From: an uncultured Gammaproteobacteria bacterium
Lineage (GTDB): Bacteria > Patescibacteriota > Microgenomatia > UBA10105 > UBA927
Assembly (NCBI GenBank): GCA_964553825.1
Contig: CAZKLT010000004.1
Span: 3,137 to 67,136, forward strand
DNA length: 64,000 nucleotides
Direction of reading: 5' to 3'
The translations under genes and the position numbers were made by a program. Below are positions 40,129 to 57,908 of the stretch, in pieces (position 1 is the stretch's first letter; the number at the start of each line of letters is the position of its first letter). A model generated the notes under the pieces. That model saw nothing but the letters and a program-made list of their open reading frames with translations, was not told the DNA's origin and did not search any database.

Positions 40129-41066
40129 ATATCCGCACCATTTTTTCCCGCCTTCCGGTGCCCATGAGGTGGGTCATCCTGCTTGGGGCAATCGGGATAG
40201 CGCTTTTTGCCGTTACCAAGACAGGATATACCGACCGCCGGCATCCAGCGCTTCTGAGTGGCAGGGAAGTCGTACGGGTGCGTGGACAGATTACGCGTGT
40301 CATGCGGACGAAAGGGCCGCGGGTAGCGTATGCATACGCCAAGACATTGTTTCCGTACGACACATCGGGTGTTTCCCAGCACTTGACGATGCATATCTTT
40401 GCGGAAGTGGCGTACGGCCGGTACGGCGCCACCGCCATGGCGTATTGTGATCGGGAGTTTTCATATGGGTGCTATCATGGCTTTTTGGGGCAGAATATTG
40501 CCCGTGAGGGTCTGGACGCGGCGCGAGATCTTTTTCTGGCATGTAAGGATGAACCGAATGTCATCGCATGCCAGCATGGGATCGGGCATGGCATTATGCA
40601 ATATATGGGCCACAGACGTTTGAAGGATGCTCTTGATGCTTGTGTGCAGATCGGCGCACCCGTCGCCGCGACCGGATGCTTCGGTGGTGCGTATATGGAG
40701 TATCACTTTCCCGCGTTGTCAGCCGGCGGGGCACAGACGGCGATGCGGTTTGATCCAGAGAATCCGTATGACGTCTGTCCTGAGCTCCCGACTGCGTACC
40801 AGTCGTCGTGTTACTTCCGTCTGGCCGAGTGGTGGGAGCAGATTCTTAGCCGTAACTACCGCCTGATGGGCGGACTGTGTGCCAGGATAGGGGAGAGCGG
40901 GATGCGTGAGCAGTGCTTTACCGCCATCGGGGCAACGAGTTTTACCACCGGGGGACATATCCGGCAGGGGGTTATCGATGCCTGCAATCAGGCGACAGGC
41001 AGCCCGGGATACGAGCGGTACCGGGATATCTGTTTGCGGGGATTTGATACACAGAGTCAACGTTGA
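40125..41066 (+). CDS. Cys/His-rich membrane-anchored paralog 2 (subtype D)
   Basis: ATGA overlap with paralog 1; MHIFAEVAYG..CDREFSYGCYHGF..CQHGIGHG..CFGGAY. Confidence 0.7.
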   Translation: MNIRTIFSRLPVPMRWVILLGAIGIALFAVTKTGYTDRRHPALLSGREVVRVRGQITRVMRTKGPRVAYAYAKTLFPYDTSGVSQHLTMHIFAEVAYGRYGATAMAYCDREFSYGCYHGFLGQNIAREGLDAARDLFLACKDEPNVIACQHGIGHGIMQYMGHRRLKDALDACVQIGAPVAATGCFGGAYMEYHFPALSAGGAQTAMRFDPENPYDVCPELPTAYQSSCYFRLAEWWEQILSRNYRLMGGLCARIGESGMREQCFTAIGATSFTTGGHIRQGVIDACNQATGSPGYERYRDICLRGFDTQSQR

Positions 41067-41072
41067 TCAGGC

Positions 41073-42161: not shown

Positions 42162-42164
42162 ATG

Positions 42165-42740
42165 TTAGCGAAACGCAAAGCCGCCTGTATAGGTTTCATC
42201 TGTGCCGACCAGGGTGAAGTCGAGATAGTATATTTCGTTGTAGGTGTCGTCAGAAATGCGAGTCGCTTGCCACGTGCCGTTGGTGTCGGTACCCGCGATA
42301 CGCGTAAATGTGAGTGGTGTTTTCTTCGTATCGGTGTCGAGCCGCGCCGTGACCGACGTGATGGGGGATGTATGGGTGGCCTTTACGGTGATCGTCTGAG
42401 TGACACCGGGTTTCACGCCAAGCGGATCAAGGCTGAATTCGTAGATTTTGGGGCCCTTGGCTTTTGGACCCGGAGCATATTGGAATGTTTCTTTCCCGGG
42501 ATTAAGAAGTCGGGGAGACGGCTTGGGTCGCATGCTGGCGGTAGGAGTAGCGCCGCCCGATTCTTCTGCGGGCACACCGCTTAACCAAGAAACCATCTCA
42601 CCCTTTTGCGTAAAAATGTAGAATGCCAATAGAAGTACAATAGCACCAATGCCTATAAAAAGAGGGGTATTGGAGATGCCGTTGGACCTTACCTTATTCA
42701 CGATATGATTTCTTTTAGACTTTGCCTTATGTAATTTCAT
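42165..42740 (-). CDS. Hypothetical membrane-anchored protein (beta-rich ectodomain), operonic with Hint protein
   Basis: N-terminal TM (LFIGIGAIVLLLAFYIF); 4-nt gap to downstream Hint gene. Confidence 0.5.
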   Translation of the reverse strand: MKLHKAKSKRNHIVNKVRSNGISNTPLFIGIGAIVLLLAFYIFTQKGEMVSWLSGVPAEESGGATPTASMRPKPSPRLLNPGKETFQYAPGPKAKGPKIYEFSLDPLGVKPGVTQTITVKATHTSPITSVTARLDTDTKKTPLTFTRIAGTDTNGTWQATRISDDTYNEIYYLDFTLVGTDETYTGGFAFR

Positions 42741-42865
42741 GACAATGTCCTTATCTTCATCCTAGGAATACGCACATCTCTTGTCAAGGGGTAAACGTGA
42801 TATACGTTACTGACCGTTTACTATATAGTTGATACAACGATGTAAGATAGATTACTTGAGACTGA

Positions 42866-44047
42866 ATGAAAAAGGTGATATTTATCGGTGTTCTCGTGTT
42901 CCTTTTTGTTGCGTGGGCTTTCCGCGCCAAACCCCAGGTCAAATCGTACCCTGAAGTGTCCTATCTTGCAGCGCAGACTATGGACTTCGGACAGTTAAGT
43001 ACGTTTTTCACCAGGCTTGCGCAAACCAAGGGAGCCGCCTATGCGTTTGAGGTTCTCGGACAGGCGTCACTCCCGCCAAATACGGATATGCACCTGCTTG
43101 GTCATGTCGTGGGAGATGAATTATATAAAGAAAAAGGAATTGACGGGATGCGTATTTGTACGCAGGATTTTCGGAATGCCTGCTCTCATTCCATTGTTGT
43201 GGGATATTTTCTTGCCCATGGAGAAGAGGGATTGGGGGCGATAGCCGAAGCATGCAGAACTGCTCCGGGAGGAAGTGGCGCGTATACCATGTGTTTCCAC
43301 GGCCTTGGTCACGGTATTCTGGCAGCTGTTGACTACGATCTTCCCCGGGCTGTTGCCCTGTGCCAGAAAACGGGAACACTTCCGTACGGATACCGTGAGG
43401 CTTCCGAGTGTTCCAGCGGGGCCGTCATGGAGATTATATCCGGAGGGTTTCATAATAAGACACTTTGGGAAAAGGCCTCAAAACGCTATCTGTCCTTGAC
43501 CCAGCCGCTTCTTCCCTGTGTCGCTGACTATATGCCGGCAGTCGCGCGGCCGTCCTGTTTTGAATATCTCACTGGACACCTGGTTACGGCTGCGGGCGGC
43601 TCACTGGATACGGGTGTGCCGACGGATGAGGTCATTGTGCGCGCTATGCAAATGTGCACTCAGGTGGTTGACGCAGCTCCTCGGGATGCGTGTTACAAAG
43701 GATTTGGAAAAGAATTTATCGTCCTTGTGCACAATCGCGATACGCGGACATTGACGGATATGAACGATGAAGAAATGAACGAAACATACCGCCTGTGTGG
43801 CCTTGCTCGCGATACGCGCGGGGAACAGATGTGCCTGACGCATGCGCTTGATTCTCTCTACTGGGGAGGCGAAAACGATATCCGCGGGGCAGTACGGTTC
43901 TGTGCGCTGATGTCATCTCCGGTTATGAAGGAGACTTGTTTTGCGCACTTAACGGGTGCTATACAATTCTTTGCGAAGACCCCGAGGGAGAAAAACGAAG
44001 ACTGTGGAGCGCTTCCCGAAGCGTACAGAAGCAGGTGTTATGAATAA
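42866..44047 (+). CDS. Cys/His-rich paralog 3 (subtype D)
   Basis: DMHLLGHVVGDELY..CTQDFRNACSHSIVVG..CFHGLGHGI..CSSGAVME. Confidence 0.7.
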   Translation: MKKVIFIGVLVFLFVAWAFRAKPQVKSYPEVSYLAAQTMDFGQLSTFFTRLAQTKGAAYAFEVLGQASLPPNTDMHLLGHVVGDELYKEKGIDGMRICTQDFRNACSHSIVVGYFLAHGEEGLGAIAEACRTAPGGSGAYTMCFHGLGHGILAAVDYDLPRAVALCQKTGTLPYGYREASECSSGAVMEIISGGFHNKTLWEKASKRYLSLTQPLLPCVADYMPAVARPSCFEYLTGHLVTAAGGSLDTGVPTDEVIVRAMQMCTQVVDAAPRDACYKGFGKEFIVLVHNRDTRTLTDMNDEEMNETYRLCGLARDTRGEQMCLTHALDSLYWGGENDIRGAVRFCALMSSPVMKETCFAHLTGAIQFFAKTPREKNEDCGALPEAYRSRCYE

Positions 44048-45524
44048 CAGAAAGGCGATAACAGGAGGGACGATTGCCGTTTTTGCCGCATGCGTGTGGG
44101 TGTTTTGGGCAAAGGCGTTCGTCGTGGGAGACGGCAGGAGTATAACGTTCCGTCAGGACGGTTACCGGCCCACGCGATTAACCGTGCGCGTCGGGGATTC
44201 CGTGACGTTCAGAAACAATTCGGGCAAGCCATTCTGGCCAGCCAGCAATAACCACCCAATCCATGAACTGTATCCCGAATTCGATCCGCGTAAGCCGATT
44301 GCTCCCGGTGAGTCATGGCAGTTTACGTTTACCCAAGAAGGAAAATGGCGTTTTCATGATCATATATATCCGGAATTTCGCGGCACGATCATGGTGCTCC
44401 CTCCGGGGAAAACCACCCTTCCGCCGCTTGACTGCAGTGCGTCTGCTGATGCCCAAACAAAAGGTCGCTGCTGGGAGGAAACCCTCAGTGATGCCCTGGA
44501 AACACGCGGCATTGCGGGCGCGTTCAAGGAATTTTCCCGATTGTATAAAACGGACACCGACTTCATACGCAGCGGGTGTCATGTGCACGCCCATAGGATC
44601 GGGGATGAATTTTTCCAGGCATATGCATCCAAGCTGCGGAAGCTGGAGGGCATAGAATTGCCCGTGGAAACTATGAGCTGTGGATACGGGTTTTTCCACG
44701 GATTGTTTGAACATTTTTTCCGGAAGTATCCGGATGTAGAATTGGCGCGGGCGATTTGTGACGACTTGGATTCGCGCTACAGCAAGACAATTCCGCTTAT
44801 CCGTATCAACTGTTTCCATGGCGCCGGTCACGGACTGATTGCGGATCCTCCCGATCCTTCATCCTGGGGAAACCCAAAGTCGCTTGTGGCTGGGCCGCTT
44901 GCGCTGTGTGCGCAAATTTCCCATATACCCGATGAATCGCATGCCTGCATTGACGGGATATTCAATGTCGTATCCAGTTGGATGGGGGACGCCAAGTACG
45001 GTATGAGCATAGACGCGGCAGATCCGTTCTGGCTTTGTGAATCAGTCCCCGACGTGGCAAAGGAATCCTGTTATTATGAACAAATTATGGTAATGAGCGA
45101 GATGGAGAATAGGGATCTGCTTGCAATTACGCGGAAATACGTGGCACCGATTGCGGATCCGCAGATCGCAAGGCTTGTTATGTTCTCGCTTGCGGCATCG
45201 TTCATGCAAAAAGACGTCGCACTTGCCGATCACGCGCATATGCTCGTGAATTGTAGAAATGTGCCCGCCGGTCTGAAAGAACGTTGTTTAGAAGGCGTGT
45301 TAAACGGTTTTAAGGGACATGGCGAACCGGGAAATGAATACAACAAAGCGCTGGCATTCTGTGCGCTTCCCCAGATGACGCGGGAGGAACAGCAGGTCTG
45401 TTATCCGTATCTGGTAAGGATTCTTTGGGAGTTATATCCGGCCCAAAAAGTGTTGTCTCTTTGTTCAATGATTCCCAGTGAATACAGAAATGCCTGCGAA
45501 ACACGGATGATTCAGCAAAACTAA
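44040..45524 (+). CDS. Cys/His-rich paralog 4 with N-terminal cupredoxin-like domain (subtype C)
   Basis: TM, then ITFRQDGYRPTRLTVRVGDSVTFRNNSGKPFWPASNNHPIH...WQFTFTQEGKWRFHDHIYPEFRGTIMVL, then CHVHAHRIGDEFF..CGYGFFHGLFE..CFHGAGHG; 8-nt overlap with paralog 3. Confidence 0.7.
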   Translation: MNNRKAITGGTIAVFAACVWVFWAKAFVVGDGRSITFRQDGYRPTRLTVRVGDSVTFRNNSGKPFWPASNNHPIHELYPEFDPRKPIAPGESWQFTFTQEGKWRFHDHIYPEFRGTIMVLPPGKTTLPPLDCSASADAQTKGRCWEETLSDALETRGIAGAFKEFSRLYKTDTDFIRSGCHVHAHRIGDEFFQAYASKLRKLEGIELPVETMSCGYGFFHGLFEHFFRKYPDVELARAICDDLDSRYSKTIPLIRINCFHGAGHGLIADPPDPSSWGNPKSLVAGPLALCAQISHIPDESHACIDGIFNVVSSWMGDAKYGMSIDAADPFWLCESVPDVAKESCYYEQIMVMSEMENRDLLAITRKYVAPIADPQIARLVMFSLAASFMQKDVALADHAHMLVNCRNVPAGLKERCLEGVLNGFKGHGEPGNEYNKALAFCALPQMTREEQQVCYPYLVRILWELYPAQKVLSLCSMIPSEYRNACETRMIQQN

Positions 45525-45526
45525 CG

Positions 45527-46696
45527 ATGAAAACTGTCATATCGCACCGTTTCCCTTTCGTCATAGGTTTTGTTCTCGTGTTGGCTATCGGCGCAGGTCT
45601 CTTTGCGGGGAGTGGACAATTTGGCCGGCCTACCTGTGATCAGAAAGATGCGGAAGCACTGAAAAAATGTTGGGAAGCGGTGGTGTCAGTGTCTATGAAG
45701 AAGGGAGATATCGCAGGCGCATTTGATTCGCTGGCTGACCTCTATGGTGCCGCACCTAATCTGGGAGAAACGTGTCATAGTCTTACTCATGAGATAGGCC
45801 GAACGGCGTATCGGTTGTTTGCGCGCGATGTTGACTTTGGCATTACGCCGAAAACCGCATACTGTTCCTATGGCTTTTACCATGGGTTTATGGAAGAGCT
45901 GGTTTTGGCAAAAGGCGACATGAAGCTTGCGCGGGAATTTTGCAGTTATGTGGATCAGCAGCTTGTAAAGGTGAGTCCGGACGTGACGCTTCAGTGTTAT
46001 CACGGTATCGGGCACGGAACCGTCAATAATCATGATCCAAGAACATGGGGAGATCCGCAGAAGCTTATCGACCCGGCCATTGCGCTGTGTGAGGAAGTGG
46101 CGACGAATGACAGCGAAGTAAACCGATGTGCAACCGGGGTCTATAACGGACTTGCCGTTTTTTACAGCAACGGCGAATACAAATTAACGCTTGACCGAAA
46201 TGATCCGGTCGGCATTTGCAGAAGGCAGCCAGAGAAGTACCAGGATGCCTGTTATGTCAGTTTCAATACGCTTCTTTTGGGGTTGACGGGATATGATTTG
46301 GCAAAGGCTGCGACGTACCTTGCCCATATTCCCCAGGATGTGATTGCACAGCATGCCATGATTAACCTGGCATCTCCCGTCGGCACCAAACATATCACGG
46401 AAACAGACCATGCTCCAACGATTTCTGTCTGCCGGTCGCTGCCCGCGCGTATTCGGCTTGCGTGCATTCAGGGATATGCGTTTGGTTTTTTGGAACACGG
46501 TGAACCGACGAAAGAATACATAAAACCTCTTCAATTTTGCGAATCAAATCAGCTTACTACAGAAGAGCAAAATGCATGCTTTGAGTACATTTTAGGGTAT
46601 CTTCCCAGATGGTATGCCAAAGAGAAAGTTTTGATGATTTGTTCGGATCTTAATCCGAAATGGAAGGAATATTGTGAGAAGCAAACTATTCAATAG
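45527..46696 (+). CDS. Cys/His-rich paralog 5 (subtype B)
   Basis: KCWEAV..CHSLTHEIGRTAY..CSYGFYHGFMEEL..CYHGIGHG..CATGVYNGL. Confidence 0.7.
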   Translation: MKTVISHRFPFVIGFVLVLAIGAGLFAGSGQFGRPTCDQKDAEALKKCWEAVVSVSMKKGDIAGAFDSLADLYGAAPNLGETCHSLTHEIGRTAYRLFARDVDFGITPKTAYCSYGFYHGFMEELVLAKGDMKLAREFCSYVDQQLVKVSPDVTLQCYHGIGHGTVNNHDPRTWGDPQKLIDPAIALCEEVATNDSEVNRCATGVYNGLAVFYSNGEYKLTLDRNDPVGICRRQPEKYQDACYVSFNTLLLGLTGYDLAKAATYLAHIPQDVIAQHAMINLASPVGTKHITETDHAPTISVCRSLPARIRLACIQGYAFGFLEHGEPTKEYIKPLQFCESNQLTTEEQNACFEYILGYLPRWYAKEKVLMICSDLNPKWKEYCEKQTIQ

Positions 46697-48101
46697 AGCG
46701 CATGCATTTTTTCTGTTTACGGCATCAGGAATTTTGGGCCTCATTGCTTTTGTTGCTGTCGGCACCTGGTTTTCCAATACCGTTATTACCTTGACGGATG
46801 ACGGATTTTCTCCGAGGGTGGTAGTAGTGAGGAAAGGGGCGACAGTTCGCTTCAGTTCAAATCGTGGGCGATATTTCTGGCCCGCATCCGATCCGCACCC
46901 CATCCATACGAAGGAGCTGAGTTTTGATCCGAAGCGTGCCATTGCCCCGCAGGGTCAGTGGGAGTTTGTTCCCATGTCAGCAGGAATTTGGACATACCAT
47001 GATCACACCGCTCCGCAGTTTCGCGGGACGGTTATTGTACTTGCGGGCGACAGCAGCGTTTTGTCGTATGTGTGGGGACGTATTGGTCAGTGGGCTCGCA
47101 TCGTTTTGCTGAACACGCAGCGGCAAAGCGATGCATATTTCCGCGACTGCGGCCCTCTGGGTAAGGACTGTTGGGACAGAGCGTTTCTCGAAGTGGTCAA
47201 CCGCGAGGGGTCGCGGGAGGCATTAAGAATGGTGGATTATCTGCGGCGGACGTATCCTGAGTTTGCCAATTATTGCCACCAGTATGCCGATTTTATTGGT
47301 GACATTTCTTATTGGAATATACCTGCGGCGCGCAGAGTTCTTGATTTTGACATCTCGCTTGCCGGGCAGTGCTCAAGCGGCTACATGCACGGATATATGG
47401 GAGAGTTTATGTCACACGGTATTTTCGCGCAGGGTGTGGCATTTTGCGATCAGATTAGAGCCAAATACCCGGGAACAGAAGCGGCATTGGAGTGTTACCG
47501 GGGGATCGGCAATGGGCTTACCTTTCAAAACGGTTTTCTCTATTGGAATGATGAAACAGCGATCGTCGATCACGCTCTTGCCGGTTGCAGCGGGTTGGCA
47601 GAAGAAGATGCCTGTCGAAGTGGGGTATTTGTGGGGATAGATCACATGCATTTTGGCGTACACGGTTTTGAGTTACGACGTGATCCGAATGATCCGTTTG
47701 CGCTTTGCCGTGGCCGGGATACCGTTACCGAGGCTGCCTGTTATGATGCGACGATCTCATCCTTTTTTGCGGCGGTTGGTTATGATTTGTCCGAAGCGGC
47801 GAAGCATCTGCGCATACTACCCCTTATTCATGCCAAGCGCGTGGTGGAGCAAGTCGTGAAAATTCCTTACGAGCTGGAAGATTTTGAACGGAAAGGCGGA
47901 AATATGACCATTATTGCCTGGTGCCGATCAATCGGCGGTGCCTTACATCCTGCATGTTTTCGGGGATTTGTCCTGAAGTTATACACGATCGATGTTGAGT
48001 ATAATGGACAAAGTAGTCTTGCCCGCGAATTCTGTGGGAATTCATTTCTGAATCAGTCAGAGAAAGACATGTGTCAGCAGATATTCAATGAAGCCATATA
48101 A
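46674..48101 (+). CDS. Cys/His-rich paralog 6 with cupredoxin-like N-domain (subtype C); GTG start
   Basis: ITLTDDGFSPRVVVVRKGATVRFSSNRGRYFWPASDPHPIH...WEFVPMSAGIWTYHDHTAPQFRGTVIVL; 23-nt overlap with paralog 5. Confidence 0.65.
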   Translation: MRSKLFNRAHAFFLFTASGILGLIAFVAVGTWFSNTVITLTDDGFSPRVVVVRKGATVRFSSNRGRYFWPASDPHPIHTKELSFDPKRAIAPQGQWEFVPMSAGIWTYHDHTAPQFRGTVIVLAGDSSVLSYVWGRIGQWARIVLLNTQRQSDAYFRDCGPLGKDCWDRAFLEVVNREGSREALRMVDYLRRTYPEFANYCHQYADFIGDISYWNIPAARRVLDFDISLAGQCSSGYMHGYMGEFMSHGIFAQGVAFCDQIRAKYPGTEAALECYRGIGNGLTFQNGFLYWNDETAIVDHALAGCSGLAEEDACRSGVFVGIDHMHFGVHGFELRRDPNDPFALCRGRDTVTEAACYDATISSFFAAVGYDLSEAAKHLRILPLIHAKRVVEQVVKIPYELEDFERKGGNMTIIAWCRSIGGALHPACFRGFVLKLYTIDVEYNGQSSLAREFCGNSFLNQSEKDMCQQIFNEAI

Positions 48102-49269
48102 ACTCATTATTCCAATTTCATTATTTTTTCTGGTTACCGCTTCCTATGTGGGCCTGTATCGCGGAGCGGGATCGACGCCCCAACATGCAGCGCAGCGTGT
48201 CATCAGTCGGTGTCAGAACGAAGCCCACCGACCTGCCTGTTATGAGCGGGAGATTCCGAAACTCATGAACACGCTCTCCATGGAAGATGCCTTTGCCGTC
48301 ACCCGTCTGGTGCAGGACGCTGATCCAGCGTTTGCATACTGTCATGTGGTAGCGCATAAATTAACCGCGATAGAAACAAAAAAGAATCCTCTGAGGTGGA
48401 AAGACGTCATGCTCAGGTGTCCGCAATCGGCGTGTAATTACGGCTGCCTCCACGGATCGCTTATCGAACGGTTCCGCGGAGAAACACTCAGCGATACGCA
48501 GATCGCTCAAACCGAACTCAGCATAAAAGATCTCTGTGAGCCGCGCCCGGGATTTGCTCCAACGGAAATTGAGCGCACGATGTGTTATCACGGCATAGGA
48601 CATCTTGCGATGTATATGACCGGAGGAGATCCTGCGCGCAGTATTCCGGTATGTGAGCGGCTTGCGAAGCGGGACGATGGCCGGGAGTATATAAAAACGT
48701 GTGTTGAAGGCGTATTTATGACTGTTTTTCAGAGTATCGATCCTGAAGATCTCGCCCTCGTTATCGACATTAGGCCCAACAAGCAGGATGTTGGCGCTTT
48801 CTGTGAGCAGTACGGTGTATACGTGGCCAACTGCCGACGTGAATCTTACGCGATGTTCGCAGACGAAACCCAAACCGCCGAAGGACTCCGCTCTTTCTGT
48901 TCCTATGCCCGCGGAGAAGAGGAAAAGCGGGATTGTTATTGGGCGGTGATTAACGCCAAAACGACGATATTCTTTGAACAGTCCGATTCGGTTTCCCGGA
49001 TTGGAGCATACTGTCGATCGTTTCCGGCAGACACTCGCAGCTGGTGCTGGCGGGGAGCGGCTATGCGGTTAGTACAAATAGATCCGTTGAGGAATGTCCG
49101 TGCGGCTGATTCCGTCTGCGCTATGGGGTCGACACAAACAGAAATCCAATCCTGTTATCAGGATTTGCTTTATTATGCTGAATTCTCGTTTGAAAAAAAC
49201 AGCCAACCATATAAAGAGTATTGCGGCGGCCTTGCCGAATCCTGGAGACAGCAATGCGTCAGTCAATAA
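48088..49269 (+). CDS. Cys/His-rich paralog 7 (subtype A)
   Basis: RCQNEAHRPACYEREIPKLM..YCHVVAHKL..CNYGCLHGS..CYHGIGHLAMYMTGGD. Confidence 0.7.
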   Translation: MKPYKLIIPISLFFLVTASYVGLYRGAGSTPQHAAQRVISRCQNEAHRPACYEREIPKLMNTLSMEDAFAVTRLVQDADPAFAYCHVVAHKLTAIETKKNPLRWKDVMLRCPQSACNYGCLHGSLIERFRGETLSDTQIAQTELSIKDLCEPRPGFAPTEIERTMCYHGIGHLAMYMTGGDPARSIPVCERLAKRDDGREYIKTCVEGVFMTVFQSIDPEDLALVIDIRPNKQDVGAFCEQYGVYVANCRRESYAMFADETQTAEGLRSFCSYARGEEEKRDCYWAVINAKTTIFFEQSDSVSRIGAYCRSFPADTRSWCWRGAAMRLVQIDPLRNVRAADSVCAMGSTQTEIQSCYQDLLYYAEFSFEKNSQPYKEYCGGLAESWRQQCVSQ

Positions 49270-50450
49270 AAAGGAAACCATTGATCGTGGGAACACTTAT
49301 AGCAGCGTGCGTGGGCTTGCTTGCCGTTGGCGTCTGGTATGTGTCGCGGGGAGCGAGCGTATCGTCAAAAATGGTGGCAGCCTTGGCCTCAAGCTGCGCT
49401 CAGTCAACGGAAACTGCCAAAACGCAGTGTTGGGAAGATCTCGTGCGTAAGGTTATCCGGGAGCATGGCGTACGGGCGGCGTTTGACGTTATATCCGCTC
49501 TGCATGATGCAGATGCGCAATTTGCACAAACCTGTCACGCCATGGTGCATATTGTGGGACAACAGGCATACGGAGAATTTCATACGACCGGACGGGTTGA
49601 TTTGTCAGCGAAGGCAGCGTCCTGCGCATTTGGGTTCTATCATGGATTTATGGAGATGTTGGTAGCGCGCAAAGGGACGATTGCCCAGGCGCAGCAATTT
49701 TGTGATTATGTCGATCGGATACTCGGAAATGAGACACCGAATGCGATATATAGCTGCACTCACGGGATTGGACACGGATCTACCGATATTCATAATCCTC
49801 AGTATTATGGGAATGAGCGGGCGGTCATAGCGCCTGCGATTGCAAATTGTGAGGCATTTGCCCGGGACGATCATGAGCTGACGCTCTGCGCGACGGGCAT
49901 ATTTGATTCGATTGCGCTTGCATACTACAACAACGGAGAAAATGGGTTTGTGATGAAAAAAGAGGACCCGCTCTGGCTCTGCCACGAGCAACCCTTAAAG
50001 TATAAGGAGGCGTGCTATCGTGATATGATGCCAGCCGTGATTTGGATGGGGGAGCACGACCTGACCCTTGCCGCCCCGATCGTTTTCACGCACGCAGAGG
50101 ACGACTACAAGGCGTTTGCCCTTGAAGCCCTTGCGGAAAACAGCGTTCGGTTCATTGTGAACAAAAAACCAACCACCGTATATCTGCCATATTGTCGCTC
50201 CCTTACGGGAAGTCTCTCTGATGCCTGTGTACGCGGATTGGCGGCAGGAGCGATGCAATTTGGCAGACCTGATCGTGAATATGAAGACGCGTTGGTATTC
50301 TGTAAAGACGACCTGCTCACTGCCGGAGAGAAGGATATCTGCATGAAGCGGATTTTGGATTATGCACGCGGGCGGTATTCGCAAAAGCGGGTTTCTGATA
50401 TCTGCAGGGAAACAGAAGAAATCTGGCGACCGTACTGCACACAACTATGA
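49254..50450 (+). CDS. Cys/His-rich paralog 8 (subtype B)
   Basis: QCWEDLV..CHAMVHIVGQQAY..CAFGFYHGFMEML..CTHGIGHG..CATGIFDSI; start at ATG 49254 (16-nt overlap). Confidence 0.7.
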   Translation: MRQSIKRKPLIVGTLIAACVGLLAVGVWYVSRGASVSSKMVAALASSCAQSTETAKTQCWEDLVRKVIREHGVRAAFDVISALHDADAQFAQTCHAMVHIVGQQAYGEFHTTGRVDLSAKAASCAFGFYHGFMEMLVARKGTIAQAQQFCDYVDRILGNETPNAIYSCTHGIGHGSTDIHNPQYYGNERAVIAPAIANCEAFARDDHELTLCATGIFDSIALAYYNNGENGFVMKKEDPLWLCHEQPLKYKEACYRDMMPAVIWMGEHDLTLAAPIVFTHAEDDYKAFALEALAENSVRFIVNKKPTTVYLPYCRSLTGSLSDACVRGLAAGAMQFGRPDREYEDALVFCKDDLLTAGEKDICMKRILDYARGRYSQKRVSDICRETEEIWRPYCTQL

Positions 50451-51676
50451 AACTGAGCGGTGGGAAAAAGCTATTGTTGGCGGGACTGTTGGTGCTTCTT
50501 GTGGCGGAAATTGCATATCTTATCGTCCCAACGCTCAATCGTTCGAAAGACGATCTTCTGACGCTTGCGTCCCAGTCGATTCTGCGTGCATGCGAAAACA
50601 ACCAGCACCGGCCGACCTGCTATGACCGGGAGATTCCCAAGCTTATGAACCGATTTACCCTTGAGGATGTTTTTGCGGTTACCAAGCGTATACAGTCTCA
50701 GGATCAGTCCTATGCGTATTGCCACGTGTTGGGACACGCAGTCTCTGCCGCCGAAACGAAAAAAGACCCGTCTCTTTGGCGTGAAGTCATAACACGATGT
50801 CCCAGCGGCGTGTGCTCAAACGGGTGTGTCCATGGGGCCTTTCAGGAGCGATTCCGCACCGACGTTCTTCCGGATCATGAAATTGAGGTGATAAAGCCCG
50901 ACTTGCTCACGGTGTGTGAGCCACGGGATTCATGGAAACCCACAAGTCTTGAGCAGGCAACGTGCTACCACGCACTTGGGCACCTGCTCATGTATATTAC
51001 GGGTGCGGATCTGACGAAATCCGTGGGACTGTGCGATCAGCTGGCCGGGGTAAAAGACGGGAGCCAGTTTGATTTCCGTCATATCTGCTACGATGGCGCG
51101 TTTATGCAGATATTTCAGCCGCTTGAGCCGGAAGACCGGGCGCTGGTTGCCGGAAAACAGCCGGCCAAAGCAGATGTGTCGGCCTATTGCAGCGTTTGGG
51201 AGGGGCAGCGGCAGGTTTCATGCATCAGTGAGTCGTGGCCGCTTTTCCTGAACGAACTACAGGATCCTTCTTATCTCTCGACGTTTTGCGGGCAGCTTCC
51301 CTCCGATTTCTCACCGCGGTGTTATACCGGTATGTTTTATATACTCGTCGTACAGTTTCGGTTTGACCTCTCGCGGATGAAAGTCTATTGCGACGGGCTA
51401 CCCCAGAATTTGAGCGGGGCATGCTACGCCAATACGGCATCCCGTCTTATTGAGACTGACTGGGGAAATGTGTATAAGGCAGCCGCATGGTGCAAGGACG
51501 CCGGGAGTGTCACCGCGCAGCAGGACTGCTATCAGGAGCTTGCGTTTTATGCGTCATATAATTTCCATATGGGGTCGCCGGAATTCTATTCCCTGTGTGA
51601 GGCCCTGCCTGAGCCCTGGAAAGACGCCTGTCTGAAAGGTTCGACGGAAGGAAATCTGAAGCCAGTGAATCAATAG
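50447..51676 (+). CDS. Cys/His-rich paralog 9 (subtype A)
   Basis: ATGA overlap; RACENNQHRPTCYDREIPKLM..YCHVLGHAV..CSNGCVHGAF..CYHALGHLLMYITGAD; five C-x9-11-C[YL] units in C-half. Confidence 0.7.
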   Translation: MKLSGGKKLLLAGLLVLLVAEIAYLIVPTLNRSKDDLLTLASQSILRACENNQHRPTCYDREIPKLMNRFTLEDVFAVTKRIQSQDQSYAYCHVLGHAVSAAETKKDPSLWREVITRCPSGVCSNGCVHGAFQERFRTDVLPDHEIEVIKPDLLTVCEPRDSWKPTSLEQATCYHALGHLLMYITGADLTKSVGLCDQLAGVKDGSQFDFRHICYDGAFMQIFQPLEPEDRALVAGKQPAKADVSAYCSVWEGQRQVSCISESWPLFLNELQDPSYLSTFCGQLPSDFSPRCYTGMFYILVVQFRFDLSRMKVYCDGLPQNLSGACYANTASRLIETDWGNVYKAAAWCKDAGSVTAQQDCYQELAFYASYNFHMGSPEFYSLCEALPEPWKDACLKGSTEGNLKPVNQ

Positions 51677-51677
51677 T

Positions 51678-52667
51678 ATGCGTATGCAACAAATATCATC
51701 GCCAATATGGTGGGCGTTTTGCGCGCTGGGCGTGACGGTTGCCGTTATCAGTGCCGCTGCGGGCATGATGGCGCCGCCGGAGCCGAGCGCCCCTGTCACC
51801 GATTCAGCGGGTGCCGTGCGGCAACTGTCGGGTATTATCCGCGCGCGCGGAGTAGATGCTGCGCAGGCGTTTTTTCTTAAACACTTCTTCTCGTACTCTG
51901 ACAACCACAGGCACTATCTGGGCCATCTAATCGGTGAGCACATATATAAGACATATGGTATGGACGGCATTAGCAGGTGTTATTCCAGTATGGAGTTTGG
52001 CTGTATCCACGGGTTTCTGCTGACTGGCTATATGGATCGGGGCGATCCGTTTCTTGACGCGGTCATTTCACGTTGCAGTCAGGATTTGCCGGAGGGGTGC
52101 ATGCATGGGCTCGGTCATGCGTTTTTGCTTATACGGGGATACGATATTGCCGATGTACGGTCCAGTATTGACGCCTGTCTTGCCCTGAGCACGCAGTTGC
52201 CGTACCGGCAGCAGTGTATTCAGGGGGTATATATGGAATACAATGACCGGTTTCTGGTTGACGGATCGCTGAGCGCAAATTCGTTTAAACCAAGAGCATA
52301 CGATCCAGACAATCCATATGCTCCGTGTGACACCGAGCCGGCACAGCTTCAGCCGATTTGTTATCGGGAACTCGTGTTGTACTGGTCGAATATTTCTACA
52401 CTGAACCCAGAGCTCATGGCTGATCTGTGCAACGGATTGTCCGGCGAAAACCGCTATGAGTGTTATTGGAGCTTGGGCGGTCTCGTAGCCGGTGACAGTA
52501 AAGAAATAGAGTCTCCGCTTGTCGAATGCTTACAGTTTGCACCGAAAGATTTGTCCGCATGTCTGAAAGGCGCAGTCCTATCAGTGGCATTTCAGAGCCA
52601 AAGGCCCCGTTCTGAATTCTGTGCACCACTACCTGCTGCTGTAGCTAAGGAGTGCCGCACATGGTAA
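51678..52667 (+). CDS. Cys/His-rich paralog 10 (subtype D)
   Basis: HYLGHLIGEHIY..CYSSMEFGCIHGF..CMHGLGHAF..CIQGVYMEY. Confidence 0.7.
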   Translation: MRMQQISSPIWWAFCALGVTVAVISAAAGMMAPPEPSAPVTDSAGAVRQLSGIIRARGVDAAQAFFLKHFFSYSDNHRHYLGHLIGEHIYKTYGMDGISRCYSSMEFGCIHGFLLTGYMDRGDPFLDAVISRCSQDLPEGCMHGLGHAFLLIRGYDIADVRSSIDACLALSTQLPYRQQCIQGVYMEYNDRFLVDGSLSANSFKPRAYDPDNPYAPCDTEPAQLQPICYRELVLYWSNISTLNPELMADLCNGLSGENRYECYWSLGGLVAGDSKEIESPLVECLQFAPKDLSACLKGAVLSVAFQSQRPRSEFCAPLPAAVAKECRTW

Positions 52668-53677
52668 AGATAAAGCATATTATCGGCATCGGCCTTCTTG
52701 TAATTGCAGTAGTTTTCGGTGCGCTGTACGCAGCCTCATCCCGCAGCGACAGCCTTTCGCGCGTTTTTGCCGGCGGTGACTTGTCGCCGGGGAAGCTGCG
52801 GGGTGCCTTCATGGCGACCATCCAGCGTGACGGTCCGGCCGAAACGTACACCAGGCTCAAGGTGCTGCTTGCCGGTATCGACGCTCCTCAGCAACACAGC
52901 ATCGCTCATATATTCGGGAATGTACTTTATAAAACAAACGGACTGTCGGGCCTGACGGTCTGCGATGCCAGCTTCGGATTTGGGTGTTACCATAGCTTTT
53001 TTGGCGCTGCCATCAGCGAAAAGGGGGAGAGCATTGTCACAGAGCTTGATCGTATTTGTGTTTCGGCGTATGGACCGATGGGACTTGGGTGTCCCCATGG
53101 GATAGGGCATGGCCTTGGAGCGTATTTCGGGCCGGACAGGATCGACGAGCAGCTTGCCCTGTGCAGTACCCTCAGCTGGAAAGGGAAGTATCTCGGGTGT
53201 CAGGGTGGCGTTTTTATGGAATATAATACGCCCACAGAAAGCCAGAGTGATACAGCCACAACTTCCGTGCGGCCCTTTGATCCCGATCGGCCGTACGGTA
53301 TCTGTCAGCAGATTGACGACACATTTCAGCCGGCCTGTTTCCTGGAGTTGTCGGGCTGGTGGGAACAGGCTATGGGTAGGGACTACGCGAGAATAGGGGC
53401 GTTATGCCGGCACGTGCAAGGCAGGAACAATCGGGACAGTTGTTTTCTGGGTATCGGATATGCGGTAGCACAGTCTACCTGGTATGATCTGCAGCAGACG
53501 CGCGATGCATGTGCAGCCGCAGGGGATGCCGATGAAGAAATGCTGTGTACCGCAGGCGCCGCGTGGAGCTTTTTTGCCAATCCGGCGGTGCGGGGGCAGG
53601 CCGCGGACGTGTGTCAGCGTCTGGCGAACGATATGCGGGCAGATTGTGTTAAGCGATCCGACCTACTTTCCCTATAG
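52661..53677 (+). CDS. Cys/His-rich paralog 11 (subtype D)
   Basis: HSIAHIFGNVLY..CDASFGFGCYHSF..CPHGIGHGL..CQGGVFMEY. Confidence 0.7.
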   Translation: MVKIKHIIGIGLLVIAVVFGALYAASSRSDSLSRVFAGGDLSPGKLRGAFMATIQRDGPAETYTRLKVLLAGIDAPQQHSIAHIFGNVLYKTNGLSGLTVCDASFGFGCYHSFFGAAISEKGESIVTELDRICVSAYGPMGLGCPHGIGHGLGAYFGPDRIDEQLALCSTLSWKGKYLGCQGGVFMEYNTPTESQSDTATTSVRPFDPDRPYGICQQIDDTFQPACFLELSGWWEQAMGRDYARIGALCRHVQGRNNRDSCFLGIGYAVAQSTWYDLQQTRDACAAAGDADEEMLCTAGAAWSFFANPAVRGQAADVCQRLANDMRADCVKRSDLLSL

Positions 53678-53680
53678 GAT

Positions 53681-55159
53681 ATGAGAAAGTTTCGTGCATT
53701 TTTACTGCTGCGATACCGAATTGTGATCCTTATTTTGGCTATTTTTCTTGCCTGCGCAGGCGCCATCTGGTTTTGGGTTCCCCAACCGCGTACGGTGGCT
53801 TTGGGTGAAAAAGGATTTGAACCCGCTGAACTTCGTGTGCCGGTCGGTACGGTGATCACCTTCGAAAATCACACACAAAAAACCTTTTGGCCGGCCAGCA
53901 ACTTCCACCCGTCGCACAAGATATATCCAGAGTTTGACTCGAAGAAGCCCATACCGGCGGGTGATTCCTGGAGTTTCCGTTTTTCGGTTGCCGGAGTATG
54001 GCGTTACCATGACCATCTCAACAGCCGCCACACCGGAACAATAATCGTGTATGCATCACCGTTTGTCCGGGCACAACAACTGTGCGACGGCGACATTGAT
54101 GTCCTGCCGACGAAGACGCAGGAGCGCTGTTGGATACAGGATATAGAAAAGACGCTCGTGACAAAGGGGATTGACGCGGCGTTTGAGCAGTTCGGCCGCC
54201 TGTACGAGACGAAAAATGCATTCTCCGCCGACTGTCATGATGTTACTCATTTGCTGGGTGAGGCGGCGTATAGGGATTATGTGCGCCACGGAACAGTCAT
54301 AGAGTCGACAAAAACAGCCTACTGCGGGTACGGATTCTATCATGGATTCATCGAGGCGCTCTTGTTTACCACCGGGGATTTTCAGCAGGCAAAGTCCTAC
54401 TGTCATGCCGTACAAGAGAAGCTGGAAGAGAAGATTGTCTCACCCAATGCCATTTATTCATGCTATCACGGGCTTGGTCACGGAACATTTGATACGCAGG
54501 CGTACTCAGAGTGGGGCGACGACGAACAGATGCTTGCATCTGCGCTGGATACCTGCGACCGGGTAACCCGGGGCGAGGAGCAGGAATTGGTGAAACAGTG
54601 TGCAACCGGCGTGTTTAATGCCCTGGCCAATGCGTACAACAACAATACGTATAATCTTTCGTTCGACCGGCAGGCGCCGTGGGGCGTGTGCGATAATCAG
54701 AAGAACGATGAGCACAAGAAGGCATGTTTCCGTGAAGTTACCGCATCATATATAAAGGGGACCGTGAAGGATACGAAGGAGGGCCTTACGAAACTCTCGC
54801 AGATCGTAGATCCCGTAGGAGCGGGGGCTGCCATGTTTGCGTATATGAGTGAGGAGGCGCGATTGGGAATGGACGTGATTGCCGCAAGTGAATTCGTCCG
54901 TCTTTGCAACACGCTTCAATCTTCTCTGCTGCGCGCGGCGTGTGCGCAGGGAGTGGGGGCTGGTTTATTTCTGTGGGGCAAACCGGGACACGAACATGAG
55001 AAGGCGATTGCATTCTGTATGACCCAGGGACTGGGAGTCGAAAGTCGGGATGCGTGCATGACCTATATTGTGCCCCGTATACGCACTGTGTATAACCGGG
55101 ATAGAGTTTCGGCCGTCTGCCGCGCGATTGATCCGGCATATCAGCATTTATGTCAATGA
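53681..55159 (+). CDS. Cys/His-rich paralog 12 with cupredoxin-like N-domain (subtype C)
   Basis: VALGEKGFEPAELRVPVGTVITFENHTQKTFWPASNFHPSH...WSFRFSVAGVWRYHDHLNSRHTGTIIVY; CHDVTHLLGEAAY..CGYGFYHGFIEAL..CYHGLGHG..CATGVFNAL. Confidence 0.7.
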   Translation: MRKFRAFLLLRYRIVILILAIFLACAGAIWFWVPQPRTVALGEKGFEPAELRVPVGTVITFENHTQKTFWPASNFHPSHKIYPEFDSKKPIPAGDSWSFRFSVAGVWRYHDHLNSRHTGTIIVYASPFVRAQQLCDGDIDVLPTKTQERCWIQDIEKTLVTKGIDAAFEQFGRLYETKNAFSADCHDVTHLLGEAAYRDYVRHGTVIESTKTAYCGYGFYHGFIEALLFTTGDFQQAKSYCHAVQEKLEEKIVSPNAIYSCYHGLGHGTFDTQAYSEWGDDEQMLASALDTCDRVTRGEEQELVKQCATGVFNALANAYNNNTYNLSFDRQAPWGVCDNQKNDEHKKACFREVTASYIKGTVKDTKEGLTKLSQIVDPVGAGAAMFAYMSEEARLGMDVIAASEFVRLCNTLQSSLLRAACAQGVGAGLFLWGKPGHEHEKAIAFCMTQGLGVESRDACMTYIVPRIRTVYNRDRVSAVCRAIDPAYQHLCQ

Positions 55160-56697
55160 AACTGATTTTTCTATTCGTATGCTTCTGTATGGCCGTGGCT
55201 TTCCGGACAGGTGTTGCGCTGGCGGCGCCGGCGACTTCGGGAGCCCATATTGTTCTGACGAATGACGGATTTCAGCCGAAAGTACTTCAGATCCCCGTGG
55301 GCAGCAGCGTTACGTTTACCACAACGCGGGGACGGTATTTTTGGCCCGCATCAGATGAGCATCCGTCGCATAGTATATATCCGGAATTTGACCCCCGCGC
55401 ACCCATTTCACCGGAGGATTCGTGGTCCCATACCTTCGAGAGACCTGGCGTGTGGAAGTTTCATGACCATGTATCGCCGTCGTATACAGGAGAAATACGA
55501 GTGATGGAAACGGGTGACCGGGTGGTTCCGATAGAAAATAAGGAAAACGTAATTGTAAAACAATCCATACTATTAAAATTGAATAATTGGATTGTTCAGA
55601 ATGTTCTCCCTCTTAATTATCGTCGGTGTATGGATGAGGAGCTGAATCACGGATCCAGAATCCAGTGCTGGGAGCATGTAGTGGTGAAAATAACCCAGCG
55701 CAAAGGACTCATCACGGCACTTAACTTCGTGCATCGGCAGAGAAGCCGCGATACTGCCTTTGCATCCGACTGTCACGTCTATGTGCATCGCATCGGGGAG
55801 GAGTATTACTGGAAGTTTTTCAATGATCGGAAAATTGAAGTATCGGATAAGTTTGGCCTGTGTGATCAGGGATTTTTTCATGGGTTTATGCAGGAATTTA
55901 CGAGTCATGGGACAAATATGGTACAGGCGAAACGGTATTGCGACACGCTTCTGTCAAGAATGAAGCAAGATGAGCACGGAGAAATGCTGATTCAACAATG
56001 CTACCATGGAATCGGCCACGGAGCCGCATTTCTGTATGCCGCATCATTGTGGGGTAATACCGATGAAATTATACGACGATCGATTGCCGACTGTCGGTCA
56101 CTTATCGATGGAAATCCGCGTATGTGCATCAGCGGAGTCTTTGGCGGAATTGCGGCGATGCATTGGGGTCTTCACGGGTTTACGCTCGAAATGGACCCTT
56201 CTAATCCTTGGGAGCTCTGTAAAAACCAGGTGAAACCCGAGAACTTGGAATGCTATGATCAGCTTGTCCCCGTGCTTTTCAGCAAGGTTGATCTGGATTT
56301 AGAAGCCGCGGGTCGGTTGGTCGCTCAAATATCGGATGCGGAAATTCAACGTGTTGCCATGATACATTTAGGGAGCATGCCTTCGTATACGATTGTGTCC
56401 AAGACGGAGGATTACTCACAGATTGTTCAATCGTGCCGACGTTTTGCCTCCCCGCTTGATCGCGACTGCCTGTATGGATTTTCCGGTGCAATTACCCGTA
56501 TTGGCGCATTGCCCGAAGCGCAGGCGCGGTCTATCCGGTTTTGTGAGTCGTCATATCTGACTGAGGCCGAACGAGCAGTCTGTTATGATAGTGTCCGTCA
56601 GCAGATATCCATACATTATTCCGAGCGGGAAGCTGTACGGTTCTGTGAACGGATATCGGCTCGGTACCAGCATTCGTACTGCAGTAATCAGCCATGA
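55150..56697 (+). CDS. Cys/His-rich paralog 13 with cupredoxin-like N-domain (subtype C)
   Basis: IVLTNDGFQPKVLQIPVGSSVTFTTTRGRYFWPASDEHPSH...WSHTFERPGVWKFHDHVSPSYTGEIRVM; CHVYVHRIGEEYY..CDQGFFHGFMQEF..CYHGIGHG. Confidence 0.7.
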   Translation: MSMKLIFLFVCFCMAVAFRTGVALAAPATSGAHIVLTNDGFQPKVLQIPVGSSVTFTTTRGRYFWPASDEHPSHSIYPEFDPRAPISPEDSWSHTFERPGVWKFHDHVSPSYTGEIRVMETGDRVVPIENKENVIVKQSILLKLNNWIVQNVLPLNYRRCMDEELNHGSRIQCWEHVVVKITQRKGLITALNFVHRQRSRDTAFASDCHVYVHRIGEEYYWKFFNDRKIEVSDKFGLCDQGFFHGFMQEFTSHGTNMVQAKRYCDTLLSRMKQDEHGEMLIQQCYHGIGHGAAFLYAASLWGNTDEIIRRSIADCRSLIDGNPRMCISGVFGGIAAMHWGLHGFTLEMDPSNPWELCKNQVKPENLECYDQLVPVLFSKVDLDLEAAGRLVAQISDAEIQRVAMIHLGSMPSYTIVSKTEDYSQIVQSCRRFASPLDRDCLYGFSGAITRIGALPEAQARSIRFCESSYLTEAERAVCYDSVRQQISIHYSEREAVRFCERISARYQHSYCSNQP

Positions 56698-57908
56698 AAA
56701 CATATCTTGCTACAAGAGGAACAGGGATTTCTGTGATCTGGCTTTTGGTGGTTCTGTTCGGTGTGGGGACGGCGCTTGCGACCCGCGTGTATTATCCGGC
56801 CAAAAAGTCGCTTTCAGCCTACGCAGACGATGTGTATGAAAAATGTGCTCCGGCGCCGCATGCCCCATCCTGTTATGACGAGGAAATTCCGAGACTCATG
56901 GACCGCATATCTATGGAAGAGGCGTTCGAGGTGACCCGGTTTGTCCAGCAAAAAGACCCGCGATACCTGTACTGCCATGTACTTGGGCACAACATAAGCT
57001 ACCGTGAGGCGGATCGCGATGTATCGAAGTGGAAAGATGTGGTCGCCCGGTGTCCCACGACGTTTTGCAATAACGGGTGTCAGCACGGTGCGCTTATGCG
57101 CAGATTTAACGCGGAGAGTCTCACCGATGCGCAAATTCAACAGGTGAAGCCGGATCTGCAGGATGTTTGTGAGCCGAGAGGGAACTGGAATCCCCGCGAA
57201 GTAGAGCGCTCCATGTGCTATCACGCCTTGGGGCACCTTCATATGTTTATGACCAATGCGGATATTAATAAATCCGTGAACTTATGTCAGGATGTGGCGA
57301 CGAAACCTGATGGACGTAACTATGTGCAGACGTGCACGCAGGGCGTCCTTATGTCTGTCTATCAACCGCTTGAACCTGAGGATTTTGCGCTTGTGCGCGG
57401 ATTGACCCCGACGAAGGAAACAGTGAACGCATTTTGCGATCAGTTTACGGGTGAAGCCTGGTTTGCCTGTCATAGTGAATCATGGCCCTTGTTTCTGCAG
57501 GACATGAAAGAACCTGCCGGTCTCATGCGGTTTTGCAGTTATACGGATGAACCGTACCACAAAAAGAATTGTATAGGCACGGGCATGAGCATTCTCACTG
57601 TCTTGATGGTCGTGGAGCAGGGAGGCAGGCTTGATACACTTACGGCGTATTGCGATCAGTTGTCGGGTATCCACAAGGGGGATTGTTACGCGCATGCCGC
57701 GTTTCGGCTTGTGCAGATAGATCCTCGATATACCGCCCTGGCCAAGTCCGTGTGTGATGCCGCTTCCCAGTCCGGTGTTGGCGATGCGTGTTTCTCGTAT
57801 CTGCTTCAGCATGTCGACCAAAGCTTCGCTCCCGGACAAGAGGCAGATGCGTTTTGTTCCGCATTTGAGGAACCGTGGCAGACAAAATGCTCGACGCGGA
57901 CCTATTGA
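56694..57908 (+). CDS. Cys/His-rich paralog 14 (subtype A)
   Basis: ATGA overlap; KCAPAPHAPSCYDEEIPRLM..YCHVLGHNI..CNNGCQHGAL..CYHALGHLHMFMTNAD. Confidence 0.7.
   Translation: MKTYLATRGTGISVIWLLVVLFGVGTALATRVYYPAKKSLSAYADDVYEKCAPAPHAPSCYDEEIPRLMDRISMEEAFEVTRFVQQKDPRYLYCHVLGHNISYREADRDVSKWKDVVARCPTTFCNNGCQHGALMRRFNAESLTDAQIQQVKPDLQDVCEPRGNWNPREVERSMCYHALGHLHMFMTNADINKSVNLCQDVATKPDGRNYVQTCTQGVLMSVYQPLEPEDFALVRGLTPTKETVNAFCDQFTGEAWFACHSESWPLFLQDMKEPAGLMRFCSYTDEPYHKKNCIGTGMSILTVLMVVEQGGRLDTLTAYCDQLSGIHKGDCYAHAAFRLVQIDPRYTALAKSVCDAASQSGVGDACFSYLLQHVDQSFAPGQEADAFCSAFEEPWQTKCSTRTY

Follow-up and report, generated by a model that had tools for sequence, protein, structure and literature searches.

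A predicted cupredoxin domain without cysteine in a paralog array of an uncultured Patescibacteria bacterium

The paralog array and its cupredoxin-like segments

The 64,000-nucleotide stretch analyzed here, referred to as the window, lies on contig CAZKLT010000004.1 of assembly GCA_964553825.1, from an uncultured bacterium of the Patescibacteriota. A profile scan of all of its open reading frames (ORFs) identified 14 members of one family, all on the plus strand between positions 38989 and 57908 (approximately 19 kb), which share a Cys/His-rich helical domain called the core below. Exactly four of the 14 (paralogs 4, 6, 12, and 13, Table 1) were found in the same scan to contain in addition an N-terminal cupredoxin segment of about 88 amino acids that lacks cysteine, called the W domain below. 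Residue numbers are those of the 53681 ORF (paralog 12), the copy that was modeled, throughout. In all four proteins the W segment was located after a hydrophobic N-terminal helix and before the helical core. The four segments had pairwise identities of 36-40% and 24 invariant columns, including FWPAS, HP.H, FD, W, G.W, HDH, and G, and the translation of each contained no Cys at all. The original prediction, made from the letters of the window, had named these four paralogs with their positions and the motif of the segment, and the profile scan and the alignment gave the same result.

The E-values of the W domains in the window (1.1e-32 to 4.5e-39) are partly circular, as the profile contains the four window sequences, so the independent support for the segment is the more than 100 full-length homologs from other genomes that carry it. 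The ORF that includes paralog 4 opens with a GTG at 43956, and 44040 is an internal ATG that overlaps the upstream stop codon by 8 nucleotides, making it the plausible start for this paralog.

The array was found again, in identical gene order, in assembly GCA_964445435.1 (locus L001, CAYUKU010000002.1:100588-122048), where it encoded proteins of 482, 395, 472, 401, 393, 404, 330, 337, 486, 506, and 402 amino acids and preceded the GT2 and methyltransferase genes known from the window, plus pilin-like N_methyl genes. Recurrence of the same order indicates that the paralog array is old and stable and did not result from recent amplification.

Three lines of evidence bear on the fold of the W domain. 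PF13473 (Cupredoxin_1) was the best Pfam match, with E ≤ 0.01 for 69 of 83 family members. The comparison with this model that had been suggested for the segment had a divided outcome in the window: the 44040 ORF exceeded the gathering threshold (GA) of 27 bits, and the other three W domains scored below it (Table 1). In a single-sequence search of the PDB sequences, amicyanin was aligned end to end (E 2e-4), and a profile of the 83 members matched 6hbe (1e-7) and 9cck (3e-7), which are cupredoxin domains of the copper nitrite reductase (NiR) or multicopper oxidase (MCO)-like type, as well as amicyanin (2e-6). Finally, an AlphaFold2 model based on the 83-member alignment was an eight-stranded sandwich with a predicted local distance difference test score (pLDDT) of 91.6. 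These results agree with the plastocyanin/azurin-type fold that had been proposed, structure prediction gave no fold other than a cupredoxin, and the W domain is, according to these models, a member of the cupredoxin fold superfamily.

Copper ligand positions and their conservation

The family profile was aligned with hhalign to 94 canonical type-1 copper (T1) repeats taken from multi-repeat proteins among the search matches (probability 99.2%, E 3e-19). The consensus of these repeats was ...tW.N.g..pHtvTa.dg.FDSg...G...s.tF...Gty.Y.C..Hp.M.gtv.V. In this alignment H76 corresponded to the first (N-terminal) T1 ligand His, which was therefore correctly recognized in the original prediction as an early ligand-position His, and the FD at 85-86 corresponded to the same motif in the T1 repeats, at the same +9/+10 spacing from that His. 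D111 was located at the position of the T1 Cys ligand, both here and in gapless alignments. The position of the second T1 His (114) was variable (N, A, S, or R), as was that of the T1 Met (117; F, Y, H, or N), and P115 and G119 were retained from the T1 loop. The proposal that HDH has replaced the canonical Cys-x-x-His-x-x-x-x-Met holds for the Cys, whose position is taken by the Asp of HDH; it does not hold for the remainder of the loop, which, set against its nearest canonical relatives, has kept the length, the Pro, and the Gly and has variable second His and Met positions. FWPAS, given as part of the same motif, is present, but the hhalign alignment placed FWPASxx (69-75) in a family-specific insertion of seven residues right before the first ligand His, so it is no part of the ancestral ligand region.

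A T1 copper site requires a Cys thiolate. Because the Cys has become Asp, the second His and Met are variable, and H76 is the only T1 ligand left, the W domain cannot be a blue-copper electron carrier. The identification with an ordinary plastocyanin was rejected at the level of sequence: Cys, second His, and Met are gone. There is accordingly next to no chance that the family consists of ordinary carriers of the plastocyanin/amicyanin type which pass electrons, for example, to NirK, even though the product name in IMG is 'plastocyanin' for nine members (P0037, P0045, P0063, P0090, P0106, P0117, P0156, P0166, and P0235) and the literature on the Candidate Phyla Radiation (CPR) assumes cupredoxin donors for NirK (PMC5581439, PMC12931201). 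These nine carry HDH or HNH where the Cys loop stood, and six of them are W-core fusions of approximately 450-500 amino acids. The matches of W domains to PF00127 (12.6 bits, GA 21.2) and TIGR02656 (19.6 bits, cut-off 87.85), which could also be cited in favor of a blue-copper carrier, were weak and under the cut-offs. The alignment suggests instead that the W domain is derived from plastocyanin/amicyanin-like T1 domains, with the blue site dismantled. Compared with the small T1 cupredoxins (amicyanin, plastocyanin, Nitrosopumilus 5fc9, and the C-terminal domain of 9cck), it has the N-terminal His, the FD, the G.[WY].Y strand, and the loop Pro and Gly in register, and like them it is probably extracytoplasmic. 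It differs from them in the change from Cys to Asp, the missing second His and Met, the seven-residue FWPAS insertion, the His at +3, Cys-1, and Cys+1, and the frequent fusion to a helical domain of 350 amino acids.

These additional conserved His residues are H79, three residues after the T1 His, and H110 and H112, on either side of the T1 Cys position; the correspondence is one of sequence positions in the profile alignment. D86 and Y82 are conserved as well, and this whole set lies at the sandwich end that canonically holds the copper site. In the MCOs, copper is bound through the motifs L3 (H-P-x-H-x-H) and L4 (H-C-H), for example H419/H422/H424 and H491/C492/H493 of CotA, and in copper nitrite reductase the H135-C136 pair includes a type-2 ligand, H135. 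We equate the positions of H79, H110, and H112 with those at which MCO and NiR have their His ligands of type-2/type-3 copper, on the outside of the domain that also carries T1. In other words, the H-P-x-H of the W domain resembles L3, its H-[D]-H resembles the H-C-H of L4, and H110 matches NiR H135 in sequence position. In contrast to the MCO and NiR domains, however, the W domain has no T1 center and no H-C-H or H-C bridge, lacks the third His of L3, is a single domain, and does not belong to their Pfam families.

Conservation was counted over 121 full-length W-core homologs. W70, P71, A72, P77, G105, and H110 were invariant in all 121. H112 was found in 114, D86 in 114 (N in the other 7), H76 in 108 (otherwise Y), and H79 in 101 (N in 17 and D in 3). 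Position 111 was D in 105 of the proteins, N in 14, E in 1, and G in 1, and was never Cys. The four His and two Asp were thus conserved at 83-100%, compared with a mean column identity of 53%. The full set of H..H plus HDH was present in 87 of 119 proteins according to a motif search and in 88 of 121 according to the alignment.

Thirteen of the 121 proteins, here called the Y clade, are marked by the pattern YPxN/D + H[DN][HND] (P0021-P0025, P0028, P0029, P0032-P0034, P0036, P0039, and P0043). They have Y76 together with N/D79, seven of them also have N/D112, and all retain H110, the rest of the domain, and the sextet of conserved residues in the core that is described below. Judged from the aligned homologs, the His cluster of the W domain is strongly conserved without being universal, and loss affects its residues jointly. 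In the Y clade the site may have been lost, or its ligands may have been exchanged for harder ones (Tyr/Asp). Since the Y clade keeps the domain with a degraded cluster, the W domain evidently also has a role that is independent of the cluster.

This pattern could also be explained if the W domain were a degenerate, metal-free cupredoxin, a structural, docking, or ligand-binding sandwich comparable to the copper-free SufI/FtsP, CyoA, and ephrins, which positions or shields the core or whose W/Y/H/D/N surface binds a glycan or protein of the envelope or of a host. We consider this a serious possibility that we nevertheless lean against. It is consistent with retention of the domain in the Y clade after loss of two to three of the four His, with the Asn found at positions 111, 79, and 86 (14, 17, and 7 of the 121, respectively), a pattern typical of hydrogen-bonding residues, and with the invariance of W70, P71, A72, P77, and G105. 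It does not account for four His and two Asp in loops at the canonical metal end that are conserved far above the column mean, or for His residues placed exactly at the copper positions of NiR and MCO.

Linkage to the core, distribution, and neighboring genes

The core is a helical domain of approximately 350 amino acids with about 16 Cys and a sextet of conserved residues, H186-x3-H190, H221-x3-E225, and H263-x3-H267. The sextet was intact in 119 of the 121 W-core proteins. Across the 14 paralogs of the window the five His of the sextet were invariant or nearly so, except in the paralog at 46674-48101, the only one of the 121 W-core proteins in which the sextet was badly degraded (H-D-H-G-R-N). 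The His cluster in the W domain of this paralog was intact, and this copy may be a decoy or lack catalytic activity. A search for core columns specific to W-fused proteins, which would have pointed to an interface or a shared site, found none.

Linkage between the two families was counted in 80 loci of 12 kb from species-representative genomes, which included 40 free-standing W genes. W-core fusions were present in 52 of the 80 loci. For 28 of the free W genes the 12-kb locus also contained a core gene, which in 23 cases was no more than two genes away, often with a spacing of 3-25 nucleotides. Fusion and neighborhood thus both tie the W family to the core family, which upheld the functional coupling to the downstream domain that had been suggested for the four paralogs.

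In an AlphaFold2 model of the full-length protein with W domain and core, the predicted template modeling score (pTM) was 0.91, which indicates a confident arrangement of the domains. The pLDDT of the loop from H76 to F85 rose from 73 in the model of the isolated domain to 94-95 in the full-length model, the two runs being based on different alignments; this loop may pack on the core. A pTM of this value would suit a metal-free domain that is docked on the core in a fixed way. Both values would also suit an interdomain copper center, in which a type-2 or trinuclear site of the NiR/MCO kind is built half from the His of the W domain and half from a partner, either a second W domain (in an oligomer or a W-W tandem) or the core with its His5-Glu face, resulting in a catalytic oxidase or reductase without T1. 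Agreement in position with L3, L4, and NiR H135, weak matches to MCO motifs in the profile search, the existence of W-W tandem proteins, and the conserved HxxxH/HxxxE/HxxxH sextet speak for such a center. We regard it as quite unlikely, however. The two His clusters are evolutionarily separable, in that the Y clade degrades only that of the W domain and the paralog at 46674 only that of the core, which argues against an obligatory shared metal center. There is also no T1 site to act as an electron source, the third His of L3 is missing (position 81 is I or L), and the Cu-oxidase Pfam model was touched by only 1 of the 83 members.

An exhaustive profile search over 1.84 billion representatives of 50%-identity clusters returned 10,339 matches at E ≤ 1e-3, a number that includes ordinary cupredoxins, 4,639 at 1e-10, and at least 228 at 1e-30. 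The WPAS motif was present in most of the best 150 matches, and among the best representatives HPxH and HDH occurred together in 111 of 129 WPAS-containing domains. The best 142 new representatives included 56 proteins of 105-180 amino acids with W alone, made up of the anchor and the domain and ending right after it; 54 with W-core; four with W-W; two with W-core-W-core; two in which a family with a predicted N-terminal His (see below) was fused to W; and one with core-core-W-W. The remainder of the 142 were canonical multi-T1 repeat proteins. The W domain is a widespread and partly free-standing module and no peculiarity of the window paralogs. The free copies that stop right after the domain, indicating an autonomous unit, count against the metal-free explanation. 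No description of the WPAS/HPxH/EFD/HDH motif set, of its fused and free forms, or of its two linked families was found in the literature searched on cupredoxins of these bacteria.

The hosts were mostly Patescibacteria/Parcubacteria metagenome-assembled genomes (MAGs), and there were also MAGs of Acidimicrobiales, Longimicrobiales, and Verrucomicrobiia. In Dehalococcoidia, with genomes of 3-4 Mb, the W domain and the core form one lipoprotein with the lipobox LAAC, encoded by a single-copy gene (loci L012, L020, L021, L023, L027, L028, L037, L041, L058, and L064). Its conserved neighbors encode a thiamine pyrophosphate (TPP) enzyme, a hexapeptide transferase, a DUF502 protein, and a protein of 198 amino acids. 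The presence in Dehalococcoidia shows that the W-core family extends beyond Patescibacteria. Judging from the membrane anchor of paralog 12 (Table 1) and the lipobox of these orthologs, the W domain and core of paralog 12 probably lie outside the cytoplasm.

A family of approximately 175 amino acids, with a signal peptide, an Ig-like sandwich, and a C-terminal anchor, was encoded directly after free W genes. Eleven of the 40 free W genes were abutted by or fused to it. All 19 of its members (L034:6267-6794, L009:6378-6767, L082:6270-6803, L055:6264-6788, and 15 more) carried the motif (A/V/T)-x-(A/T)|His where cleavage is predicted, which would leave His as the first residue of the mature protein. 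Three independent fusions of this family to the W domain were found (L036:5248-6267, P0200, and P0255). Histidine-brace copper proteins are characterized by an N-terminal His, and this neighbor is a hint, at the level of sequence, of a link to copper; the genetic association, in some cases by fusion, is a further point against a metal-free domain. The family could be assigned to no Pfam or PDB family; no match to CopC, YcnI, or other copper families was found, only weak Ig-like matches (PKD, Big_3_5, and filamin), and a database search with it returned 7 unnamed proteins.

Locus L004 (3084-5410) encodes in a row a canonical T1 cupredoxin with H, C, H, and M all present, the W protein P0235, and a 495-amino-acid fusion of an RnfD-like membrane domain and an FNR-like NAD-binding domain. 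A general redox context for the W domain was considered and rejected, as this was the only clearly redox locus among the neighbors sampled. At the other loci the sampled neighbors were envelope-glycan genes (glycosyltransferases) or unrelated genes (TPP enzyme, DUF502), and CARDB, leucine-rich repeat (LRR), and fn3/peptidoglycan-binding domains were among the other neighbors and fusions around the family. The flanks of the array in the window encode a DegT aminotransferase, a GT2 glycosyltransferase, a methyltransferase, LRR and tetratricopeptide repeat proteins, and a Hint-domain protein. Neighbors and fusions of these kinds (glycosyltransferases, DegT aminotransferase, CARDB, LRR, and fn3/peptidoglycan-binding) speak for the metal-free explanation of the W domain. 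The profile scan found no free W gene and no gene for the N-terminal-His family in the window.

The genes that interrupt or precede the array are listed at the end of Table 1. In the 362-amino-acid secreted protein that interrupts it, the middle is of low complexity and rich in Ser/Tyr/Gly, and the C terminus forms a Hint/PT-HINT domain (E 1.5e-10). Two small LRR proteins and a DUF7282 protein are encoded immediately upstream of the array. The LRR, DUF7282, and Hint genes suggest a cell-surface or host-interaction island.

Table 1. Coordinates, counted in the window, of the array, the W domains and cores, the motifs of paralog 12, and nearby genes
Feature	Coordinates	Strand	Remarks
Array of 14 core paralogs, four with a W domain	38989..57908	+	broken at 41073-42740 by two minus-strand genes
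W domain, paralog 4 (ORF 44040-45524)	44139..44399	+	profile E 4.5e-39; PF13473 27.5 bits (GA 27); amicyanin aligned end to end
W domain, paralog 6 (ORF 46674-48101)	46779..47042	+	profile E 1.1e-32; PF13473 15.5 bits, below GA; HPIH and HDH present
W domain, paralog 12 (ORF 53681-55159)	53792..54052	+	PF13473 19.7 bits
W domain, paralog 13 (ORF 55150-56697)	55246..55509	+	profile E 9e-37; PF13473 18.0 bits
Membrane anchor, paralog 12, residues 2-32	53684..53776	+	AlphaFold2 helix 2-32; basic residues ahead of hydrophobic stretch
FWPAS motif, paralog 12, residues 69-73	53885..53899	+	W70, P71, A72 invariant; aligned to a 7-residue gap in canonical cupredoxins
HPSH, paralog 12, H76-P77-S78-H79	53906..53917	+	hhalign: H76 at T1 N-terminal His; H79 three residues on
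HDH, paralog 12, H110-D111-H112	54008..54016	+	gapless against amicyanin YHC and canonical Y.C..HP.M.G; D111 at T1 Cys position
Core, paralog 12	54113..55156	+	all-alpha, Cys/His-rich
Equivalent cores, other three W paralogs	44451-45500, 47163-48089, 55645-56685	+	
Secreted Hint/PT-HINT protein	41073-42161	-	interrupts array
Small LRR protein	36174-36875	-	upstream of array
Small LRR protein	37345-38070	-	upstream of array
DUF7282 protein	38610-39014	+	upstream of array

A non-blue metal module for the core

The data above are best explained if the four paralogs present, outside the cytoplasm and anchored in the membrane, a cupredoxin domain in which the T1 site has been dismantled and which would bind one non-blue divalent metal through His and Asp, with copper (Cu(II/I)) as the best guess. 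Candidate ligands are H79, H110, and H112, which would form a three-His, type-2-like site, and/or the relic pair of H76 and D111; clustering of the His in space is expected from homology. The role of the domain would be accessory: it would bind or deliver metal, or take part in redox chemistry, for the His/Glu/Cys-rich core proteins, acting in cis in fusions such as those of the four paralogs and in trans where it is a small free protein encoded beside core genes. We give this reading, that the W domain binds one non-blue metal, most plausibly copper, and serves the core as an accessory module, an even chance of being correct. The pointers to copper are the N-terminal-His neighbor family, the row of redox genes at L004, and the precedent of FtrB.

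FtrB of Brucella (8vuk) belongs, with the B. anthracis protein 4hcf, to the EfeO-type PF13473 proteins, which are the best Pfam match to the W domain, and FtrB is Cys-less as well. It has been reported to bind Cu2+ with micromolar affinity without Cys, through Asp/His near the C-terminal loop, and to oxidize Fe2+ (PMC11966278). D111 and H112 of the W domain are candidates for Asp/His Cu(II) ligands of the FtrB type. The W domain differs from EfeO/FtrB in that only one of the four window copies reaches the GA, in its distinct WPAS/HPxH/HDH set, and in its context: no Ftr1/EfeU-type iron permease (FtrABCD/EfeUOB) and no EfeB was found in the flanks of the window or among the sampled neighbors of the 80 loci. 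In its mode of action the W domain would be furthest from plastocyanin and closest to the Cys-less cupredoxins of the EfeO/FtrB type, and it is only a borderline member of PF13473. Another non-blue parallel is the engineered azurin C112D (type-2 or 'type zero' copper), in which Cys was changed to Asp and Cu(II) is still bound. That protein is a laboratory mutant retaining both T1 His, whereas the W domain has lost the second His and gained new ones.

Several observations weigh against a metal site in the W domain. In the Y clade most of the His are gone, yet the domain persists and the core sextet is intact, and the changes from D to N and from H to N seen in the alignment would also be tolerable on a hydrogen-bonding surface that binds a ligand or a protein. 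The most strictly conserved motif, W-P-A with P77, is not a set of ligands. The absence of W-specific columns in the core counts in the same direction, as does gene context: no copper, respiratory, or permease genes were found near the array in the window, and the loci sampled contained envelope-glycan genes.

A more far-reaching version of the preferred reading would be that the W domain, the His5-Glu/Cys core, and the Ig-like protein with the N-terminal His together make up a copper system outside the cytoplasm that has gone unrecognized in Patescibacteria and that Dehalococcoidia and a small number of further monoderm lineages share; in it, a T1-less cupredoxin with MCO-type type-2/type-3 His would hand copper to a binuclear center of the core or complete that center. 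We regard this as rather unlikely. If true, the stage with a single domain and copper at an interface that has been postulated in the evolution of MCOs would have a surviving representative.

The loss of T1 together with the retention of His at type-2/type-3 positions bears on how copper sites evolve in the cupredoxin fold. The 'plastocyanin' labels on Cys-less members amount to systematic mis-annotation, which is relevant to proposals about NirK in the CPR. In published metabolic reconstructions of CPR bacteria, NirK receives its electrons from a 'cupredoxin' or 'plastocyanin' (PMC5581439, PMC12931201); any such donor of the WPAS/HDH type could not do that job, so these reconstructions should check for the Cys. 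This is a large family with a sharp motif set that is genetically tied to two other uncharacterized extracytoplasmic families, and a metal assignment for the W domain would offer a first clue to the function of these expanded surface families in organisms of minimal metabolism.

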